A stretch of DNA of 64,000 bases from assembly GCA_965112155.1 (NCBI GenBank), contig OZ218105.1, one strand, 5' to 3'. Made by a program: the position numbers and the translations under genes. The notes under the pieces were generated by a model. The model saw nothing but the letters and a program-made list of their open reading frames with translations, did not search any database and was not told the origin of the DNA. Below are positions 2,740-51,900 of the stretch, piece by piece. How positions within the stretch are numbered: the stretch's first letter is position 1; each line of letters starts with the position of its first letter. The DNA comes from Podarcis liolepis (taxonomy: Eukaryota).

Positions 2740-5700
2740 GAGAATAGTGGGTGGGCATTGCAGACTTTTGTCCTCTCCAGCAACATGTGTAGATCCAGAT
2801 TACCATACAGAATTAATTAATACAAAATAAGGGCATTGGTGTGTATTAAATATGGTTGAAATTCCAGGGGCCAATTAGGCCCGCACTTACAGAATATTAG
2901 TTATAATAGGGAAATTCCCTTGTACAGTAACTACTATGGGGAGAATGTTTGGCATTAACTACCGATTCTTCCCTTAAAACTTAGCTTGAACTTCATCAGT
3001 CCCCCCTGCTTCCTTTGCAAGAGTGCTGCACTCATTGGTCAGTGCAGTGCTAAGTGTACACATAGATTTGGGTCCCATGCAGTGATGTTCCAGTTGAACT
3101 GAGATTCTCAGCAATGCATGTGTGAATAGGCCCATCACAGGACATTTTAATATTGTCCCCAACACAATGTTTTGCAATAGAGTTGGCTTACTCATTCTAC
3201 TGATAGCCCTCAAGAGCTTGTTCATATTTTCATGTTTATCATTTGGATTATGGCAAAATCAACTGGGTTACAGCCCAAGTGAAAAGTGCATATTTACCAT
3301 GCATCTGGTTTGGCCTAACAGGATTCATACAGAAATTAAGCGATGGCAAGCATGTGTGAACAAGAAGCAAGTGTATAATAAATAGTTGTAGAGAATTCAA
3401 GTGATAAATTTGATTCTACAAACCAGTTCTTAGCATATTTAAACGGTTGAAGACAGCATGTGTCTCTTAATCTGTCCTTCTCAGACTCTACACATTTAAA
3501 TGTCTTCAACTTGTCCAACTTTGTCACTTTTCTGTGAAAATCCTTCAGTCTGAATCCTGCTTTCTTGAAATGTGGTACTTGAACTGAATATGTTGAACCA
3601 TTTATGATTAGTATTATTGTTATCAGCCTCAAAAGGCCCCTGAAGTGTCCATGGTTTAAAAAGTCCCATAAAACACATATCAAAATTAGTAGAACAGAGT
3701 TATAAAATAAAAATAAACAATGCCAAATAAAAAAGACAGCATGATGTATGGAATGGCTGTTCCAGTACATCTGTCAGGTTCTAAAAGCTGCCCTATAAAG
3801 GAAGGTCTTGACTAACATTGTGATGTAGGGAAGAGGTTAATAAGTGAGGCCTCTCTCAACAAGATTTTTTTAAAGTATGACAGCCATTGACCAGTCTATC
3901 AACCCTGTCATCTTAGAAGCTAAGGGAACATGCACCATACCCTTCTTTAGCGAAATATTCCTGGTCTTCCCTTCTCTCTTGACCCTTCACACAATCAGTA
4001 CTCTTTGAATGAAGGAAGGGTTGTAACCATATTCAGCTGAATATGGTAAGAATATTCTTGCAGACCTTTGTGGTCATCATGTGAAAGGTTGGGAGAGTAG
4101 GAAATGGTGGCCAGAGGACACAAAGATGTTGGGATAGACCTGGTGCACACACTGGTGTGCTATAGTTAGCCATTATGTGTATTTAGAATCATGTCATATG
4201 ATTGTGCTCGCTTGTTGGTTTTCAATCCCATCCTCCAAACGGTTTGCAATTCCCACCTCATGTGTGTCTTTGATCCTAGATTTCACATTTGAATATAGTT
4301 GCCCATTTGCCTTCATGCCTCTTTGTAATACGAATTGCAACATCTATTTTCAATTGTCTTTTAGTCTCTTGGCACTGAAAATGTTAACCTTTCATGAGTG
4401 CGATATTCCTTTGCATATAAAGGTTAGGTTTAAACATCTCAAATATGAAGAAACTAGCAACCCGCCTCTCTGCTAGCCCAAATCCATGTTGAATTACCTG
4501 ACCTCTGATAAATCCCACCAAAGCCATGTAAATGATGTAAAAGATATATTTTTATTTTATTTTTTAACCATGTGGCACCAGCTCATGGCTCGGCTGTTTA
4601 TTAGAGAGCAAATCTGCCAATATTGGCTTGCTCCAATGAGCACTTATAAAACCACACCGATATATGTGTTTGCATTCCTCTTCAGCTCAAAATTTGTCAG
4701 AGAAGAAAGGCATTAAACCTGTCACCTCAGATAAAGATCAGATGTTTGATTTCAAACAGAAGAAAGCAAACACTCAGCAGCAGACTCCATTAACTCCTTG
4801 AGTGCTTTATTTAGACCACCGGACAGGGCTGGGAAACACGTTACTTCTGAGGTGGGTGCCAATGAATTCTCCGCAACCACCTTGCTGATGAATTTTCCTG
4901 AGGGAAGGAGGCAGATACAACATAAAAAGAAGGACAAAAAAATATATATCCACAGTTGTGTCAGTATGTTTTCTGTATTGATGGCATTGCCTTCAAAATT
5001 GGAAACTAGGTTGGATATTTGTTTATGACAAGGGTGTCAACTCTTGGCTCTGCATTTTTGTAACAGATTGACTCAGTGGCACCAGAGAAGGAGGCTGTTC
5101 CCTGATCTACTTCGCTGTAATGAAAGAACAAGGGGATTTCGGCAATGCCTCGGTCATTTCTCAGGCTACATGAAGCATAGATTTTGTACCTGTTCCCTGC
5201 TTTGTAATTCCCTTGTCAAGCACCCACTCTGCAGCTGTTGAAAATGCACAGTGAAATCCATGAATCGGAATTATAGTTGCCACCTTGTCGACTGGCTCAG
5301 AGGCTAGACCTTTAATAGTAGCCTGACACGGGGGAACAGGAGCTTCTCCCTGGGTGCAGCTTTCCCGAGCCCTTGTCTCCATATTTGGAAAAAGCCTCGG
5401 CTGCGGAACTTCAGCTGGAGATGGTTGAATCAGCTAAATGGAACTATTTCTATTTGGTTTAATCATGTGAAATGGCTTCATTTTGTAGATTAAAGGAATC
5501 ACTACTGAAACAATGGAGAGGGATAATCTAACCGTGCTTTGATTCTTTCATATTAGGTCAATGTGAAGGAAGCTGCAGGACTTCCTTCAGGATTTTAGAG
5601 CATCCTTTCTAAATGCTACAGCTGGCCTTGCTTTGTGTGCATCATGTAGAGGACAGCATGATCTCAGCCATATTAGAATCTGGGTCTGCAGCAGATATTC

Positions 5701-12427: not shown

Positions 12428-13181
12428 AATTAACAGTGTTGCTGTTTATGTGGACTACTACAGTATTGTTATGTAGTCCTAAGAAGTATGTTTTATGTGC
12501 CACATAATGTAGATCCTGAACCTGTCGTTTCAGACACAATTCAATAAAATGAACACAGGGAGAGAAAGGGGGCAGGGTTGATTAAAGGTTAGATCGATAA
12601 GATCACATGCTTTTCATTGGCAAAGTATGTCTTCAGAAGTGTAAATTCTAACTCTTATCAAGGTTTTAATGTTACCCCTTCACCCTTAATTTTACTCCAG
12701 TGCAATGTTAAATCAAGTCAACATGAAAATAGTGGAGGAAAGGTTTTAAGCAAAATGGAGTACAAGTTATTGTCAAGCACACTGTGCAACCTCTTCTGCT
12801 CATGGAAATACCCATAACCACAACTCTTCCTCTAAAGATGACCAGAAATGGAAAGGGATTATAGGGCACCTTAGTCCTTTTCAGGCATTCATCTTCTAGG
12901 TACCATCAGTATACAAGAGTAGGGATGAGGGCATTAGCTCTACCTGCCATTGCCTCCTGAAAATTGGAGGGATAAAATCTACAATGGGGAGCCTGCTGTA
13001 TTCATGTATGTAAGCTTTTGTAGTGATGCATATAAGGAATGAAGTCAGACAAGAGGCATTTCTTACATTCTTGAGCTCAAAGGTAGTAATGGTGACCTTT
13101 CAGCTTGAGATCCCATAATTTCCAACACTTAGCCCACAGTGTTGATGGTCCACATCCAGAAGAACTCATGCCCCCAAGCTT

Positions 13182-13412
13182 GGGAGCCAGTGTGGTGTAG
13201 TGGTTAAGAGCGGTTGTCTCGTAATCTGGGGAACCGGGTTCGCGTCTCCTCCACATGCAGCTGCTGGGTGGCCTTGGGCTAGTCACACTTCTCTGAAGTC
13301 TCTCAGCCCCACTCACCTCACAGAGTGTTTGTTGTGGGGGAGGAAGGGAAAGGAGAATGTTAGCCGCTTTGAGACTCCTTAAAGGGAGTGAAAGGCGGGA
13401 TATCAAATCCAA

Positions 13413-13449
<37 letters not shown>

Positions 13450-20899: not shown

Positions 20900-20990
20900 A
20901 TTAAAGATTTCTTGGTTTACAAAAGTATGTGCAATGTCTCCTTTTTCAAGTTACATTTTCTACAGGTCAGTTTCATTTGTTGAGACATTA

Positions 20991-21194
20991 AAGACTCTCC
21001 TCCCCGAAGGGGAGGGGAGGGGTTGTGGTCGGGGCTCGAGCTCCGGCTAGCAGGGGGCGTGGCCCCCTGCTGCCCACTCACCTGGCTGGCGCTCACGCCC
21101 CCCCGGTGGCCATCCAACCGGGGGCCACGGTGGGGGCGTGTTCAGCAGCATTTTGCTGCAGCGCCAGCCTTCGCCCGGCCTCATTCTTCCTGCC
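20991..21194 (+). repeat. Ngaro repeat A1 (truncated by the internal deletion)
   Basis: Matches 22591-22794 at offset 1600 with one difference seen (A21166 vs G22766). Confidence 0.92.
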
Positions 21195-21581
21195 CTGCTG
21201 TGTCAGTACTGGTGCGTCAGTCCAAGACCGATCAGACTGGCAAGGGTGTCCTGCCCAAGCTCACGGCGTCCGCCCAGCAGGGCCCGTGTCCGGTGAAGGA
21301 CACGAGGCGGTTTCTCCGCCTTAGACCAGCCGTCCCGGGACCGTTCCTTATACACGAGGATGGGTCGCCCCTGTTGAGGTGCCAATTCACTAGAGTAATG
21401 CGCAAGGCTATTGAGGCTTGTGGCCTACCCCCCCCATGAGTACGCTGCACATTCGTTCAGGATCGGGGCCGCCACCACGGCCGCGCATCTGGGGTTGCCG
21501 GCAGAAAGGATAAAAGAGTTGGGCCGGTGGAAATCCAATGTTTATAAGTCATATATTCGCAACCTTGCGCCTACCCCTTAG
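21195..21581 (+). pseudogene. Tyrosine recombinase, C-terminal fragment with +1 frameshift
   Basis: VLVRQSKTDQTGKG...CPV...QFTRVMRKAIEACGL. After removing one C from the C8 run at ~21428-21435 it continues HEYAAHSFRIGAATTAAHLGLPAERIKELGRWKSNVYKSYIRN*, giving the SKTDQ, HxxR, GRW and catalytic Tyr motifs of DIRS/Ngaro YRs. Confidence 0.9.
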
Positions 21582-21585
21582 TCTG

Positions 21586-21618
21586 CTTACCCTTCCTTTG
21601 TTCTATCTTTATTCCCAG
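21586..21618 (+). promoter_or_regulatory. Candidate 3' splice site upstream of the hydrolase ORF
   Basis: Branch-point-like CTTAC (21586-21590), a pyrimidine tract CCTTCCTTTGTTCTATCTTTATTCC, then CAG (21616-21618), 2 nt before ATG 21621. Confidence 0.55.
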
Positions 21619-21620
21619 CT

Positions 21621-22192
21621 ATGCCCGGAAGAAACGTGTGGATTTGCGGTCACAGCATTGTTCATTGGGCCCGCGTGCGAGCGGTTGCTGCGGCCTGGCA
21701 CCCAACCTTGGTCTGCCGCGTGATGTTCGAGTTTCCTGGTTTTCGAGAAGAGGCATGCGTTGGGAAGAACTGATGCCTTTGCTGCGGGAGAAAGTAGCCA
21801 AGCTCGGCTCTCCCGACGTCCTGGTGATTCATTTAGGGGAGAATGACCTTGTCAACAAAAGGAGTGTGGACTTGTTGTCAAGCATAAAAAGAGACTTGAA
21901 TGCATTCGCTGCCTTGTGTCCCAGAACGACAGTATTCTGGTCCTCCTTCCTGAAAAGAGCTGTGTGGCGCGGTGCGCAAAACTTGATGGCCATTGAAAGA
22001 ACCAGGAAACTCGTAAATCGGGCGGTAGCCCGTTGGGTGCGCTTTACGGATGGCCAAGTGATTTATCATGACCGTATCCGGATTAGCAACAAGGCTTTAT
22101 ACCGGGATGACGGTGTCCATCTATCGGATCTGGGGAATGATTTTGGGTTAGCTAGTGTCATTAGAAACATCTGGGATTGGTTGCAGCTTTGA
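21621..22192 (+). pseudogene. SGNH/GDSL-family hydrolase ORF of the Ngaro element (one frameshift near 21680-21690)
   Basis: ATG 21621 gives MPGRNVWICGHSIVHWA (block I nucleophile, GHS). The 21638 frame gives RRGMRW (block II Gly), VLVIHLGENDL (block III GxND) and DGVHLS (block V DxxH). Stop at 22190-22192. Confidence 0.88.
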
Positions 22193-22225
22193 GGGTATTG
22201 GCGGCGAGCCTTTAGCTCGGGTGGC

Positions 22226-22590
22226 GGTTAGGCATTGGAATAATGTGTTGCGCTGTGTGGAAGTGCTAGGTGTGGCCATCGCCTATGCCTTCAATTTTTA
22301 GGGGTATTCCGTTAAAGGAATCTGGGGGTCGTGTATTCCGTCCGATGCCTGCTTGGCGGGAGGCCTTGGCACGACCCTCGGTGACAGCAGGGGTGAGCCT
22401 ATAGTCGGATCAGCATCGACAGGCTCCACCTACTGGTGAAGAACCCAATTGTTTCGATCCAATGCCTAAGCCAATACCTTTTCAAATGCTGTAACCAATA
22501 AAGTTGTGGCCTTTCTCTAGCCCATTAACCTTATATCACGTGTCCTTGTGTCTTCATTTCACTTCACCGGGGTCGGGTCCTCGAACCACA
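22226..22590 (+). repeat. Ngaro repeat B1 (AATAAA at 22497-22502)
   Basis: 365 bp, identical by my reading to 22995-23359 (offset 769). Confidence 0.92.
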
Positions 22591-22994
22591 AAGACTCTCC
22601 TCCCCGAAGGGGAGGGGAGGGGTTGTGGTCGGGGCTCGAGCTCCGGCTAGCAGGGGGCGTGGCCCCCTGCTGCCCACTCACCTGGCTGGCGCTCACGCCC
22701 CCCCGGTGGCCATCCAACCGGGGGCCACGGTGGGGGCGTGTTCAGCAGCATTTTGCTGCAGCGCCGGCCTTCGCCCGGCCTCATTCTTCCTGCCTTCGCC
22801 CCTCACGAGTCACCCACCCTCCACTCCCTTTAGTTAGGGCTCAGGTTTTTCGGCCTTGCTATGGACCTTAGGTTGGTCGCCCTGGTTGGCTGGGGGGCCT
22901 GGTAGGAGTTTTTCCATTTGGCACTAGGCTAATTGGTTTTTTCACCTACCTCGTAGCAATCGTCACAACTTTTTTTTTGTGGTATTGGTGGGTA
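22591..22994 (+). repeat. Ngaro repeat A2 (full length)
   Basis: First 204 bp match A1. Lies between B1 and B2. Confidence 0.88.
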
Positions 22995-23359
22995 GGTTAG
23001 GCATTGGAATAATGTGTTGCGCTGTGTGGAAGTGCTAGGTGTGGCCATCGCCTATGCCTTCAATTTTTAGGGGTATTCCGTTAAAGGAATCTGGGGGTCG
23101 TGTATTCCGTCCGATGCCTGCTTGGCGGGAGGCCTTGGCACGACCCTCGGTGACAGCAGGGGTGAGCCTATAGTCGGATCAGCATCGACAGGCTCCACCT
23201 ACTGGTGAAGAACCCAATTGTTTCGATCCAATGCCTAAGCCAATACCTTTTCAAATGCTGTAACCAATAAAGTTGTGGCCTTTCTCTAGCCCATTAACCT
23301 TATATCACGTGTCCTTGTGTCTTCATTTCACTTCACCGGGGTCGGGTCCTCGAACCACA
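22995..23359 (+). repeat. Ngaro repeat B2 (AATAAA at 23266-23271)
   Basis: Direct repeat of B1. Confidence 0.92.
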
Positions 23360-26300
23360 ATGTTACATTAGGAAGAAAGGGGGGAAAGAGGTGGAGAGGT
23401 CATGGTGAGTGGGGCTGGGGTCGGGTGGCAATGTTTCTATTTTACTTAATGTATGTGTGGGTTTTACATTTTACATTTTACTTAATGTATGTTGTATCAG
23501 TGTCGCTTGTGCGGGTTCTCTTCTCTATTCGTTTGTGTTCCTTTGATGGTGAGAGAGGTTGGGGTTGGTGTAGGGTGTAGTTGTTTGTTTGTGATTGGCT
23601 GTGGTGGACTTTGCTTTCATGTGTGAGTGGGGTGGGTGGGTTTTTTTTTAATCAGGTTAGCCATATTGATTCGTATGCTGTTGGTGGATTCTTGTCGTTG
23701 TCTGATAAAAGGGAGCCATACTGGGGTGACGGTGTCTTCTTCCATATGTCCCAGTTGTCAGTTTCAGCTTATTGGTTAGTTTTTCTAGTAAGGCTGCTTC
23801 CCATACTATTTGGTACCATTGGTCTTTGCTTATTCCTGACAGGTCTCTCCAGTGTCTGGCTATGATGTTTCTGGCTGCTGAGAGTAGGTGGGTTATGAGC
23901 TCTTTGTGATGTGAGTAGGCATGATTGTCTTGGAAGATGTTTAGTAGGGCCAGTTCTGGGGTAACTTCTAATACTTGTTTAGTTATTTTGCATATTTCTC
24001 GCATGGTTGTTACCCAGACTAGTTGGATTTGGGGCATTCCCACCACATGTGGAGGTACATATTGTTAACAACTCCATCTGTCGTATTTTTCCCAGATATT
24101 GAAAAACCTATCCAGAAGTCTGGAGAAAGAGAACTACTTTCAGCCAATGCTATAAAACCTGCCACACTTCACCAAAGCCAAGGTCAGACCAGATGCTAGT
24201 GACTTTGCCCTTGAAGGGCATTGCAAACTTCACCACCTGAATGTGCTCTGCTGGGTGGCTATTCCAGTGATGACATGGAAGTAATCCTTACTAATCACCA
24301 TCCCTACCACACGATAGGCATGATTTTGTGCTCTAACCTGTGCTCAGTCCCCTTCTTTGTGATCCTTGCACCACTTGCTCTAGCCATCACCTGGCTGGGT
24401 CATTCAACTGGAATGGTCTACAGTGCTAGAGAGGTCATGCAAGAACAACCATGTCAATGCACCTTTTCACACCACTAGAGCCTCAAAAGGGGTGCCAGTC
24501 ATGCCAGTGAAAAAATAATTTAAAATGTATTTTCTCACAAAAAATGGATTCCTCCCCCCTCAAAATAAGAACATATAAATGTATTTTTTCTTAAAATAAA
24601 CATTTTCAAATGCCTTTTGAGATCCTTTCTTTCTAGCTGAGAACTGTCTCAGAACATTTGGAAAGTGTGAAAGCTGGTGGATAACTAAGTTCTGATCCAT
24701 ATGGGAAATGCAGCTGAGGTCAGTTCTTTTTGTAATTCATTATCACTGGATTCCTCAGACAGTCCGACCCAAAAGTATGCCCCATTTATTTCAACGAAAT
24801 GTATGCCCAAATATGAAAGCTTAGGGAAGAAATCCTATGAACATAAGGTAAGTCCCACTGAAAAGTACACATTGATTTACATACTTAGGCCACAACTTCC
24901 ATTCTCTGCTGGCAGGGCTTTGCAAAATGGTGACGCTGCCGTCACAACAGACTGTATGGTGGGACAGCAGAAGGCCATGGGCAGGACAATGAGGCGCATC
25001 ATCAGCACCTGATGAAAATGAGACTAGCTTGGATCCAATGTGCAGTGCTGTGGTGGAGAGGTACCACAGGGGAACACAGTTTCAACACTATTTTCAGAAG
25101 AGGTATGATGATGTCACCTGCCAGATAGTTTTTCCTTGCCCTGGCAAGTAAGTGGAGTGAAAATGAAATATTCAAGTTTGAATCAGATTAAATTAGAGTG
25201 GGAAACCTCTGCCCCACGGGCCAAATTCGGCTCAGCAGTGGTCCCAGTTGGGCCTGTGAGGCCATGTCCAGCTGGCCTACATGACCTGTCCCACACAGTT
25301 TCAATGAAAACGTTGGCAGGTGGGGGTGGGATGGAACAATACACATGTTAATCTTCAGATACCATAATGATGCCAGGTGACTGACTGGTAGGTTGTTTCA
25401 CCTACCTGTCAAAATTGACCCATAAATATGTAGCCCCCTAGACCAAGAAGGATCTGAAAAAAATGAGGAACATTCCCCCCCCCTTTTTGCAGGCGTGGCT
25501 TTGGGAGCCATCATGATAAACTCCCACACCTCAGAATTTATCACTGATTCATGGCAAGAAGGCTAAAAAGCCCTTTCAGAATTAAAATTCTCCTTTCAAA
25601 TAAGATTGTTCACATTGCGTTCAATGACATACTCACATTCCCTGATCCCAATCTCTGTAAGGAATTGGGTTTTCTTTTCTAAAGTTTAGGGGCTTGTGTA
25701 ATCTCTTGGGTACCTGGCGCTCAAGTGCATTTTACAAAATGAAAGGAGAGCTTGCGTCACTTCACATATCTGATGGAGTCACTCACAATTTAATGCAAAA
25801 CTGGCCTTGCCAATCAGACTCCCCAGGGTTTCCCAAAGTGCTTCTGAAGAGCAGTATGTTTTTGTCTTTTGCTGGAAACAGACGGGGCACTAAAGAGTAG
25901 TTATTTTTAAAAGATTCAGGTAAAAAGCTTGGCCATATAATACCCCTAATCTTTCACACTCATCCCAACTCCTCATTCCTCCTACATTTTACTATGCTGT
26001 CAATAAGCATAGTGTACTGTTCTCGCGTGACATAAAAAGATTATCTGAAAATTCCCCCCCCCCTTGTTGTAGACAACTTGTTTGCCTAGCAATATAAATT
26101 TGAGAGAACAGTGCTATTTAAATGAAATGCCAAAAGACAAAATTCCACAATATATCTTTCTTCTTTCAAAAAATGCATTTTCTTTGTAGTTCAAGAGGCT
26201 GTGTGTGTGTGTTGTTTCCTAGTGAAATATGGGGAGATTGTTACTTCTTATCCAGATGCATTTAGGTACTTACTTGTTACATACCAAAGCCTGAAAGACA

Positions 26301-35908: not shown

Positions 35909-36044
35909 CAGGCATCCCCAACCTGGGGCCCTCCAGATGTTTTGGCCTACAACTCCCATGATTCCTAGCTAACAGGACCAATGATCAGGGATGATGAGAA
36001 TTGTAGTCCACAACATCTGGAGGGCCGAAGGTTGGGGATGCCTA
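35909..36044. mobile_element. Palindromic hAT MITE with perfect 8-bp TSD
   Basis: Long TIRs CAGGCATCCCCAACCT..GGCCCTCCAGATGTT / AACATCTGGAGGGCC..AGGTTGGGGATGCCTA. TSD CTGTAACC at 35901-35908 and 36045-36052. Confidence 0.9.
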
Positions 36045-40256: not shown

Positions 40257-40510
40257 AAGAAGAAGAAGAAGAGTTTGGATTTGATATCCCGCTTTTCACT
40301 CCCTTTAAGGAGTCTCAAAGCGGCTAACATTCTCCTTTCCCTTCCTCCCCCACAACAAACACTCTGTGAGGTGAGTGGGGCTGAGAGACTTCAAAGAAGT
40401 GTGACTAGCCCAAGGTCACCCAGCAGCTGCATGTGGAGGAGCGGGGAATCGAACCCGGTTCACCAGATTACGAGTCTACCGCTCTTAACCACTACACCAC
40501 ACTGGCTCTC
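40257..40510 (-). mobile_element. Young tRNA-derived SINE (Squam3-like)
   Basis: Minus strand has GAGAGCCAGTGTGGTGTAGTGG (A box), GGTTCGATTCC (B box) and a (CTT)n tail. Matches 13182-13413. Confidence 0.88.
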
Positions 40511-41377
40511 AAGAGCAGGTCAGCAGAGCTTGTGCTCTTAACTAAATACATCTGTTGAAGGCATTTGTTTAGCTTTTCTCTGTAGGAAGTCCACTTCTAG
40601 GATTCGGAAAGATCAAGCATCTCTTCAAACTGCACATGAAACATTATCACAGAAGGAGCAAAACTGGACCATAGTAAAAAAGTAAAACAAAACAAAACAC
40701 ACTACCTAAGCCTTATGACTGGAGAAACATAAAAGAATATGTCTTTTTGAGGTTTGAATGGCCAAAAGAATTAAGAAGAATAAAGTTTTTCACTTTTGGT
40801 AGCCATCTTCCTTAGTTGTTCCATTTTTCGGGAATGTTTCCTACTTTCATCAGATATTTATTTACCCTGGCATTTCTCAATTCTCAATGTGTGTTTTTTT
40901 AATTAAGAAAGTTGAAGCATTAAAATCGTGAGTTAGATATTTAGTAAATTAAAAATACAGCTGCTAGAAGGCCATCTTTTGTTTCTTTTGCAAACAAGTC
41001 CATGTGGAGGAGAAGAGTGGGCGTTCCAGCCTGAATTAAGTCTACCGAAGTGAGAGACAGAAATAAACTTATCAGTTCCTTTATAATTGTTAAGCCATTG
41101 TCATCACCTGCTAAATTTTTTTGTTTGGTAACTTCTGTTTCTTTCTGATAATGCAATATGAAATGTTTTTTTTTAATGCTAGGTCGACAAATAAGCCATA
41201 TAAATAGAAATGCTATGATATTTGATGCTATGGTGAACGTGAAGGAAATACTTGTTATTAAAGAGTCTTGGCTCTTTTGTCTAAATCATCTAAAGGTATC
41301 TTCACTACTGACATTGACATGGCTTTGCTACTGTGGTTGTAACACACTGTGGTGGTTTTTCTGGGGGTTATCTGGGG

Positions 41378-45630: not shown

Positions 45631-45768
45631 CAGCCTTTCTCAACCTGTGGGTCCCCAGATGTTGTTGGACTACAATTCCCATCACCCCTAGCTAGCAAGG
45701 CCAGAGGTCAGGGATGATGGGAGTTGTAGTCCAACAACATCTGGGGGCCCACAGGTTGAGAACCGCTG
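45631..45768. mobile_element. Palindromic hAT MITE related to 35909-36044
   Basis: TIRs CAGCCTTTCTCAACCTGTGGG.CCCCAGATGTTGTTGGACTACAA / TTGTAGTCCAACAACATCTGGGG.CCCACAGGTTGAGAACCGCTG. Flanks ACCTAGGC / ACTAGGC. Confidence 0.88.
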
Positions 45769-51194: not shown

Positions 51195-51900
51195 TTGCAT
51201 GACCAGGCGTGACAGCCCCAGCCCCCAGAGATCATAAGAAAGGAATAAAGACTCTGACAACGTTATGGAATTAAAAATTAGGCCACAACTTTATTAAACT
51301 TCTGAATGTAGGAAGATCTTGGCTTAGGCCTTGGGCGTGTATCCTTCCAAGCCCCCCAGCTGGGGGAACTGGGGTACATCAGGGTAAATGGGATATGGGG
51401 GTGTTCTGTGAGACGTAAATGTAGCAGGCAGCCTAGCCCATATCCCTGCACGCAGAGTAGTTCACCTTTCAGTGGATGGCCAGTGACACCCCCTTTAAGA
51501 GGGGGACCCTGGAATCACCGCCGCAGGGGGTTGAATCACCACTTCACGCCCCCCCAGCCCATTAAAGGGAAGAAAAGACTAAAGGATTCCACCCAAGGCC
51601 AAAACCGCCAAAGTTGTGACAAATTGCTACAGGGAAGACAAAACCTGCCAATGCAGGAAAATTTCTTCCCGGTCCTTCAACAGCAACCAGTCAAAGACCG
51701 TAGCAGCGCCCGCTAAACAGGAAGAAAGAGTTAACCTGCAGACAAGAAAACATTAAACAAAGGGAGGGTGGGGACGGTGAATCTCCAGAGCTGACATTCT
51801 GGCTATCGTTGGCTCCACCCCCTATTTATAAATGGGGCTGTTCCCGCCTCCCAGCAAGAAACTTGATTACTGAGGCTGGGTGTGAACCTCCAAATAATAA
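51195..51900 (-). mobile_element. Solo A-B repeat unit of a second, divergent Ngaro-type family
   Basis: Minus strand carries, in the same order as A2-B2 of the 21-23 kb element: CCACCCTCC, TGCTA(C/T)GG, GTAGCAAT..GTCACAACTTT, GGC(C/A)TTGG, GCCTAAGCCAA and AATAAAGTTGTGGCCT. TATAAATA occurs in A. No YR, RT or hydrolase ORF. The A-side boundary is approximate. Confidence 0.75.

Follow-up and report, generated by a model that had tools for sequence, protein, structure and literature searches.

A predicted folded junction and a G-quadruplex motif mark the inner repeat edges of Ngaro retrotransposons and may help to rebuild the split repeats

In most of the Ngaro retrotransposons compared, the identity between the copies of each split repeat begins or ends at a recognizable motif: repeat B has a predicted folded junction at its left edge, and repeat A has at its inner edge a C tract whose complement is a predicted G-quadruplex. 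Here, we describe both motifs from the window, a stretch of 64,000 nucleotides of the lizard Podarcis liolepis (contig OZ218105.1, assembly GCA_965112155.1), and from relatives of the element found in it. The analysis supports the view that a folded structure in this known type of element is real and selected, as judged from pairing across families and shuffled controls. The junction and the predicted G-quadruplex may together delimit a B+A DNA copy from which the split repeats would be restored with every jump, an account that we regard as plausible, if somewhat short of probable. The element type itself is known, and the pair of edge-defining motifs is what is new. Priming and repeat regeneration in tyrosine-recombinase retrotransposons are unsolved; even for DIRS-1, whose cDNA is single-stranded and antisense, the primer is given as unknown in the available text of PMC7192593.

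One Ngaro retrotransposon of the window is of lizard type and has suffered an internal deletion, with the order A1, tyrosine recombinase (YR) remnant, SGNH ORF, B1, A2, spacer and B2 (20990-23360), and the window also carries a fragment of a second Ngaro family, family 2 (Table 1). The assignment to Ngaro comes from the split direct repeats A1...B1-A2-B2, the remnant of the YR gene and the SGNH ORF that follows it. A deletion directly after A1 takes out gag, RT/RNase H and most of YR. The YR remnant pieces have no Pfam match; their SKTDQ and HSFRIGAATT motifs recur in intact relatives, one of which has a YR that matches PF00589. In relatives, the RT/RNase H region missing here is present, and all 8 ORF2s scanned match RVT_1 while none (0/8) matches a methyltransferase. 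The closest named relatives of ORF4 are Podarcis proteins, with 78-79% identity. The ends of the element are confirmed by the empty-site joint 20990-23361, which was found in 9 and 5 contigs of two sequencing runs. The Ngaro junction core AA is located at the left end, the B/A junction and the right end, and the empty-site joints show no target duplication. The inferred target, ACATTAATGT, is a palindrome, with G at one position in most empty sites. The surrounding DNA is a very high-copy repeat (flanks 20900-20990 and 23361-23450, word depth of about 51,000 in run X1). Repeat A2 contains CTCATTCT at 22780-22787, which we take to be an initiator-like motif.

Table 1 Coordinates of the Ngaro element, its junction parts and the family-2 fragment in the window.
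Feature	Position	Strand	Remarks
Repeat A1	20990..21194	+	205 bp; 1 mismatch to A2
YR C-terminal remnant, broken	21195..21581	+	SKTDQ and HSFRIGAATT motifs in different frames
SGNH-hydrolase ORF4	21621..22192	+	Frameshift near 21690; Pfam PF13472, E 1.7e-5, under that profile's cut-off
P1 5' strand, B1 context	22176..22202	+	Outside repeat B; 9/9, 6/6 (1 GU) and 12/12 (1 GU) pairs with 22470-22499
P2 hairpin (CGAGC/GCTCG)	22205..22219	+	
Junction strand J (GGTGGCGG)	22220..22227	+	B1/B2 identity begins at 22226
Repeat B1	22226..22591	+	366 bp; identical to B2
P3, 12-bp long-range stem and family-specific multibranch interior	22228..22469	+	
P1 3' strand	22470..22499	+	
AATAAA, then TGTGGCC	22497..22511	+	Identical in family 2
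Repeat A2	22590..22794	+	GC-rich, promoter-like
A2-B2 spacer	22795..22994	+	200 bp; single copy in element; C-rich start
Four-run G tract (predicted G-quadruplex)	22813..22828	-	18 nt past visible A edge of the window's deleted copy
Spacer-end strands pairing with B2	22962..22989	+	11 bp with 23269-23279; 9 bp with 23239-23247
Repeat B2	22995..23360	+	Identical to B1
Family-2 fragment, A-spacer-B type	51240..51900 (ends approximate)	-	No ORF
Family-2 TATA	51830	-	
Family-2 four-run C tract, compact	51777-51762	-	
Family-2 closing stem	51620-51590 with 51337-51282	-	
Family-2 AATAAA	51295	-	

Sequences resembling splice acceptors (polypyrimidine-AG) are found at 21600-21618, just 5' of the ORF4 ATG, at 22925-22956, near the end of the spacer, and at 51650-51628 on the minus strand, and those at the spacer ends of both families read YAG/CAAT. 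These sites suggest a putative spliced mRNA for ORF4 and, possibly, a short A2-spacer-B2 transcript. Among the listed matches of reads and contigs aligned to the window, there was no splice joint, no pile-up of read ends and no poly(A) tail, and 558 further loose ends lie beyond these matches. The window also contains short MITE-like inverted-repeat elements at 35910-36043 and 45631-45768, and a dispersed inverted repeat pair at 13179-13415 and 40272-40513.

An initial annotation of this DNA had proposed that repeat B is closed by a long-range stem. The pairing itself is sound: 22228-22239 and 22458-22469 form 12 of 12 Watson-Crick pairs, 22194-22202 and 22470-22478 form 9 of 9, and both hairpins that had been named inside the stem occur in the minimum free energy fold. 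The z-score of the fold is -4.1 for segment 22194-22478 and -2.4 for the family-2 stretch, and none of 200 shuffles reached the same stability in either case; for 22150-22550, a perfect 12-bp stem with arms more than 150 nt apart was obtained once among 2000 base shuffles. Both double substitutions between the families (A-T to C-G and A-T to G-C) are genuine; calculated by hand and given the alignment, the chance that two 3' changes match two of the three changed 5' positions among 12, with the right bases, is about 0.005. The 12-bp helix of family 2 also carries one broken pair (T-T). The initial comparison of the two families set different contexts side by side, because the family-2 copy is of the B2 type, with a spacer before it, and is devoid of hairpin P2. 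Furthermore, the stem is not wholly contained in repeat B, since B starts at 22226 and leaves the 5' strand of the outer 9 bp outside, and the full helix extends beyond the pairs first quoted, with 22176-22193 pairing to 22481-22499. A search of Rfam over 20900-23400 gave three weak matches, far under the gathering scores. The structural support consists of comparisons between cognate and cross-family strands and of shuffle controls.

The stem is the lizard form of P3 and P1, two helices of a conserved predicted junction that borders repeat B on its left. The 3' strand of P1 has a different partner in each repeat. In B1, the last codons of ORF4 (WDWLQL and the stop) double as the outer 5' strand, and they lengthen P1 to 27 pairs, up to the AAT of AATAAA. 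In B2, this role is taken by the 3' end of the spacer, an unrelated strand that makes 9 + 11 pairs and occludes AAA-GTTGTGGC. Family 2 retains the 11-nt strand at the end of the spacer (51620-51610), including its T-G wobble. In other families, reads and contigs match about 22173-22238 or 22459-22512 only and diverge beyond these segments, which identifies the closing strands as the conserved part.

Each of the two unrelated 5' strands pairs half of the AATAAA hexamer, and the junction could therefore be a poly(A) switch of lizard elements, in which the extended stem would hide the signal of B1 for read-through and the signal of B2 would be used. As the hexamer emerges, only that of B1 is occluded (about 3 versus 0.1 kcal/mol). 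Nine nucleotides later, however, both are half-paired (3.0-5.8 kcal/mol for B1, 4.4-4.8 kcal/mol for B2), so that the switch is unsupported at equilibrium. Moreover, the junction is kept in invertebrate elements that have no AATAAA at that place, and the repeat edges are left unexplained. We consider a switch quite improbable as the explanation of the junction; it could be a function added in lizards.

Relatives were gathered with an ORF4 alignment, which gave 35 metagenome loci, and with a YR alignment, which gave 51 loci from genome bins; many of the latter are complete split-repeat elements. There were no relatives in the viral contigs scanned, nor in a first genome scan. The YR loci in prokaryote-labelled bins are most likely host DNA. 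Loci L036-L086 include many complete Ngaro elements in bins labelled bacterial or archaeal, some on contigs of 1-2.8 Mb, pointing to host contamination. Identity of the RT among 14 elements is 29-77%, with four related pairs at 61-77%. Most elements share a common layout after the last ORF, composed of the P1 5' strand, a G run, P2, TGGCGG or TGGGC, an optional P3 and the P1 3' strand. A strict P2-type hairpin is found directly 5' of TGG in 26 of 33 loci, compared with 170 of 1601 other TGG sites. In 21 of 29 loci, no more than 3 of 28 foreign strands pair as well as the cognate P1 strand, in a test whose search windows were chosen by eye and were probably too short in three of the failures. 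When whole regions were folded across families, a noisy test, the cognate strand ranked first in only 5/19. Ranked by energy within 300 nt, P1 was in the top 10% in 10 of 31, a low score that we attribute to AT-rich helices being outcompeted by chance GC helices. RNAalifold gave no consensus structure on a MAFFT alignment of 16 cores.

The size of the conserved unit differs from what had been proposed. In SGNH-type families, a long helix starts just past the junction and closes about 220-530 nt; among 11 loci whose interiors are unalignable, 9 have a helix that no more than 2 of 40 shuffled controls could match. The invertebrate families of this type have a GGCC motif similar to that of the window 3' of the closing stem. 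Elements without an SGNH gene usually have a short hairpin as P3 or lack it. A selected multibranch cis-element in the B repeat of Ngaro is supported, but the conserved unit is a small junction and not a domain of 250-290 nt. The most likely role of the long P3 stem is simply to fold a family-specific insert away at the RNA level, letting the junction close. The core helices P1 and P2 have 389 Watson-Crick pairs, one G-T and one A-C, counted with a method that favours Watson-Crick runs, and folding would be possible on either strand since nearly all pairs are of this kind. The long P3 helices have 12 G-T against 3 A-C, an excess that points to a fold of the sense RNA; taken over all long stems, the polarity is weak (18 G-T against 7 A-C, in a G/T-rich region).

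Several further observations were made on these loci. In L037, a distant element, the junction (4925-4990) is followed by TTAGGCATGG, which is nearly the P3 5' strand of lizards. L003 (592-3089) encodes gag, RT/RNase H and SGNH with no YR ORF between them, and its junction is intact, with a closing stem of 22 bp. The sequence GGR[SRG] ends 12 of 107 ORF4 proteins, P0074, P0079, P0101, P0131 and P0133 among them, whereas WL[QG]L is the terminus of the closest relatives; the overlap with the G-rich motif may have influenced how these proteins end. A TTAA core is common to the B/A recombination junctions of L052, L056, L059, L061, L068, L070, L072 and L082. Hammerhead, HDV and twister cores were rejected by eye, as no match to their consensus was seen.

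The junction coincides with the point where B1 and B2 become identical. This was determined in 19 elements with two comparable B copies, the window included and L065 dropped because its edge was unplaceable. TGGCR or TGGGC lies within -6 to +3 of the start of identity in 15 of the 19, against a background of 5%, with a motif pattern that was set after inspection of the data. With TGG anchors picked nearest to the edge, the edge falls -2 to +6 around TGG across the set. The strict P2 hairpin precedes B1 in 12/19 and B2 in 4/19. In three elements, the two B copies match at 100% of positions over lengths of 366, 619 and 761 bp, which indicates that the whole repeat is being homogenised. A tRNA primer-binding site at either TGG was ruled out, as the bases after TGG vary within 3-5 nt. 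Among the functions initially listed for the stem, priming or strand transfer is favoured by this coincidence of junction and repeat edge, packaging keeps some standing and export is unsupported.

At the other inner edge, the identity of A1 and A2 ends -1 to +2 from the start of a four-run C tract in 10 of 12 elements other than the window, where the background is 0.3-6% of positions; L036 is an eleventh case, with an offset of 0, which makes 11 of 13. The tract, for example CCCTCCCTCCCACCC, has as its complement a four-run G-quadruplex motif with short loops, and four G3 runs are present in 6 of the 12 elements first tested. Five of the cases are from contigs with probably collapsed repeats, in which the divergence point is still informative, and the edge of L082 is shifted 8 nt beyond one mismatch. 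The exceptions, L056 and L061, end at poly-T tracts. The G runs are separated by varying T or A across elements, which suits a fold over complementarity to one fixed primer. L068 has a decayed copy of the tract after A1, which suggests what a leaky stop would leave. In the window, three contigs diverge near 21187, suggesting that the true A edge is near the visible one, and the family of the window accordingly fits the rule less well. Pairing of the C tract with J was rejected as a general rule, as it appears to fit some families only.

Could the edges have a cause other than priming? The junction might be a packaging or Gag/RT-binding signal, while a G-quadruplex on the template strand silences the duplicate A2 promoter and selection on gene conversion trims the edges. 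G-rich internal loops are typical nucleocapsid sites, there is one full core per element, and in family 2, L029 and L064 the tract is located about 50-95 nt 3' of a TATA box. However, selection alone need not place an edge 1-2 nt from the first C (11/13) or a few nucleotides from TGG (15/19), and we judge this combination improbable.

The sequences show the architecture, the coincidence of a motif with each edge, the spacer and the helices, and from these we infer a route of replication. Full-length identity of both repeat pairs, together with a spacer that is not shared, is most simply accounted for by one B+A copy that templates the new B2 and A1. An RNA would begin within A1 and end at the poly(A) site of B2, with minus-strand cDNA started near the 3' end of this RNA. 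The plus strand would then be primed at the G-rich J, the position held by the polypurine tract in LTR elements; P1 and P2, being nearly free of G-U pairs, could fold on the RNA or on single-stranded cDNA. The plus strand would copy B1 and A2 and then stall at the quadruplex in the cDNA template. The stalled B+A copy would move to the 3' end of the cDNA through a short A homology and template the missing parts of A and B. Finally, terminal B homology would close a circle, ORFs-B-A-spacer-B-A, in which YR would open one B/A junction. Several points count against this model: a polypurine-tract primer requires no RNA fold, the window's compact G tract lies beyond the visible A edge, an edge that the deletion obscures, the B edge varies around TGG, and neither the whole-region folding across families nor RNAalifold gave a clear signal.

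The same motifs can be read with the opposite polarity. The RT would bind the RNA junction and start or stop minus-strand synthesis there, and the C tract would be the start, from a G-rich primer or de novo, of a minus-strand B+A strong-stop DNA that jumps to B2. The hepadnaviral polymerase, for instance, starts at the RNA element epsilon. Both edges and the inherited spacer are accounted for equally well in this manner, the RNA fold conserved at J is given a better reason than by the plus-strand model, the G-T excess of the long P3 stems favours the sense strand, and J-like G-rich bases end many spacers. However, this route would require a second RNA template, or else a block at J that is regulated, the variable tracts match no fixed G-rich primer, and the A edge of two elements is poly-T and not C; we hold this reading to be rather unlikely. 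At poly-T edges, a stop signal fits better than a primer site, and HIV central termination uses dA/dT tracts. The plus-strand model is favoured because it needs one RNA, fits the antisense single-stranded cDNA of DIRS-1 and treats the poly-T exceptions as another kind of stop.

A further way to begin the minus strand would be a 3' fold-back of the spacer end on TGTGGC that primes itself, like the 3' hairpin cited for DIRS-1 in the accessible part of PMC7192593. The spacer does contain a complement of the region of the GGCC motif in the window, family 2, L016 and L029. Such priming would leave the final 33 nt of the spacer uncopied, but this segment is inherited, conserved T-G wobble included, which argues that it is not recopied from the primer. 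Self-priming therefore seems very improbable.

The plus-strand model can be set beside known systems. LTR elements prime plus-strand strong-stop DNA at a polypurine tract, and the central termination sequence of HIV is a defined stop. Like this tract, J is G-rich and sits directly 5' of the repeat, and a defined stop would precede strand transfer; unlike it, J is short, is only partly purine-rich, with C and T, and lies in a predicted folded junction, a tRNA primer-binding site is absent, and the presumed stop is a G-quadruplex motif. Hepadnaviral epsilon and retron msr are also structured RNAs with an unpaired conserved strand beside a DNA end, but they have no sequence similarity to the junction. 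DIRS-1's internal complementary region (ICR) likewise serves as an internal template that restores both missing cDNA ends before integration by YR; it is an inverted copy annealing within one strand (PMC7192593, available text), whereas direct repeats need a copy from the opposite strand or from a second template, whose ends the two motifs would define. The vertebrate Ngaro element DIRS-53_XT of Xenopus resembles that of the window in the order A1-ORFs-B1-A2-B2, in its identical repeat pairs and in a YR followed by an SGNH ORF, while the window copy has lost gag and RT; the available text of PMC9210276 describes no RNA structure, spacer signal or edge motif. SIRE, of the VIPER element of T. 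cruzi (PMC6681497), and the solo AB repeats of Cafeteria Ngaro (PMC8547959) are units of A2, a short exclusive region and B2, and the family-2 fragment resembles one; unlike for the elements of the window, the accessible parts of these two papers mention neither a structure nor a G tract. In bird Ngaro, Z-DNA and not G-quadruplexes is enriched, according to the available text of bioRxiv 10.1101/2025.10.17.683159. The literature searched, PMC3783388 and PMC3266345 included, held no description of an RNA junction or a repeat-edge G-quadruplex in Ngaro in its accessible text; the papers of Goodwin, Poulter and Butler (2004, 2005, 2015) lie outside it, and these sequences may be discussed there or a model of replication proposed.

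Extended to Ngaro across animals, the proposal is that the G-quadruplex of the cDNA would be a programmed strong-stop and the folded junction the origin of the plus strand, a generalization that is plausible but that we advance with some doubt. If it is true, the split direct repeats would be a B+A long repeat bounded by two nucleic-acid folds, which replace the tRNA and the polypurine tract. Motifs mark both inner edges of the repeats even among families that share as little as about 30% RT identity, and this leads to base-level predictions on priming and repeat regeneration, and the edge motifs would also be usable as annotation anchors for the ends of Ngaro elements.
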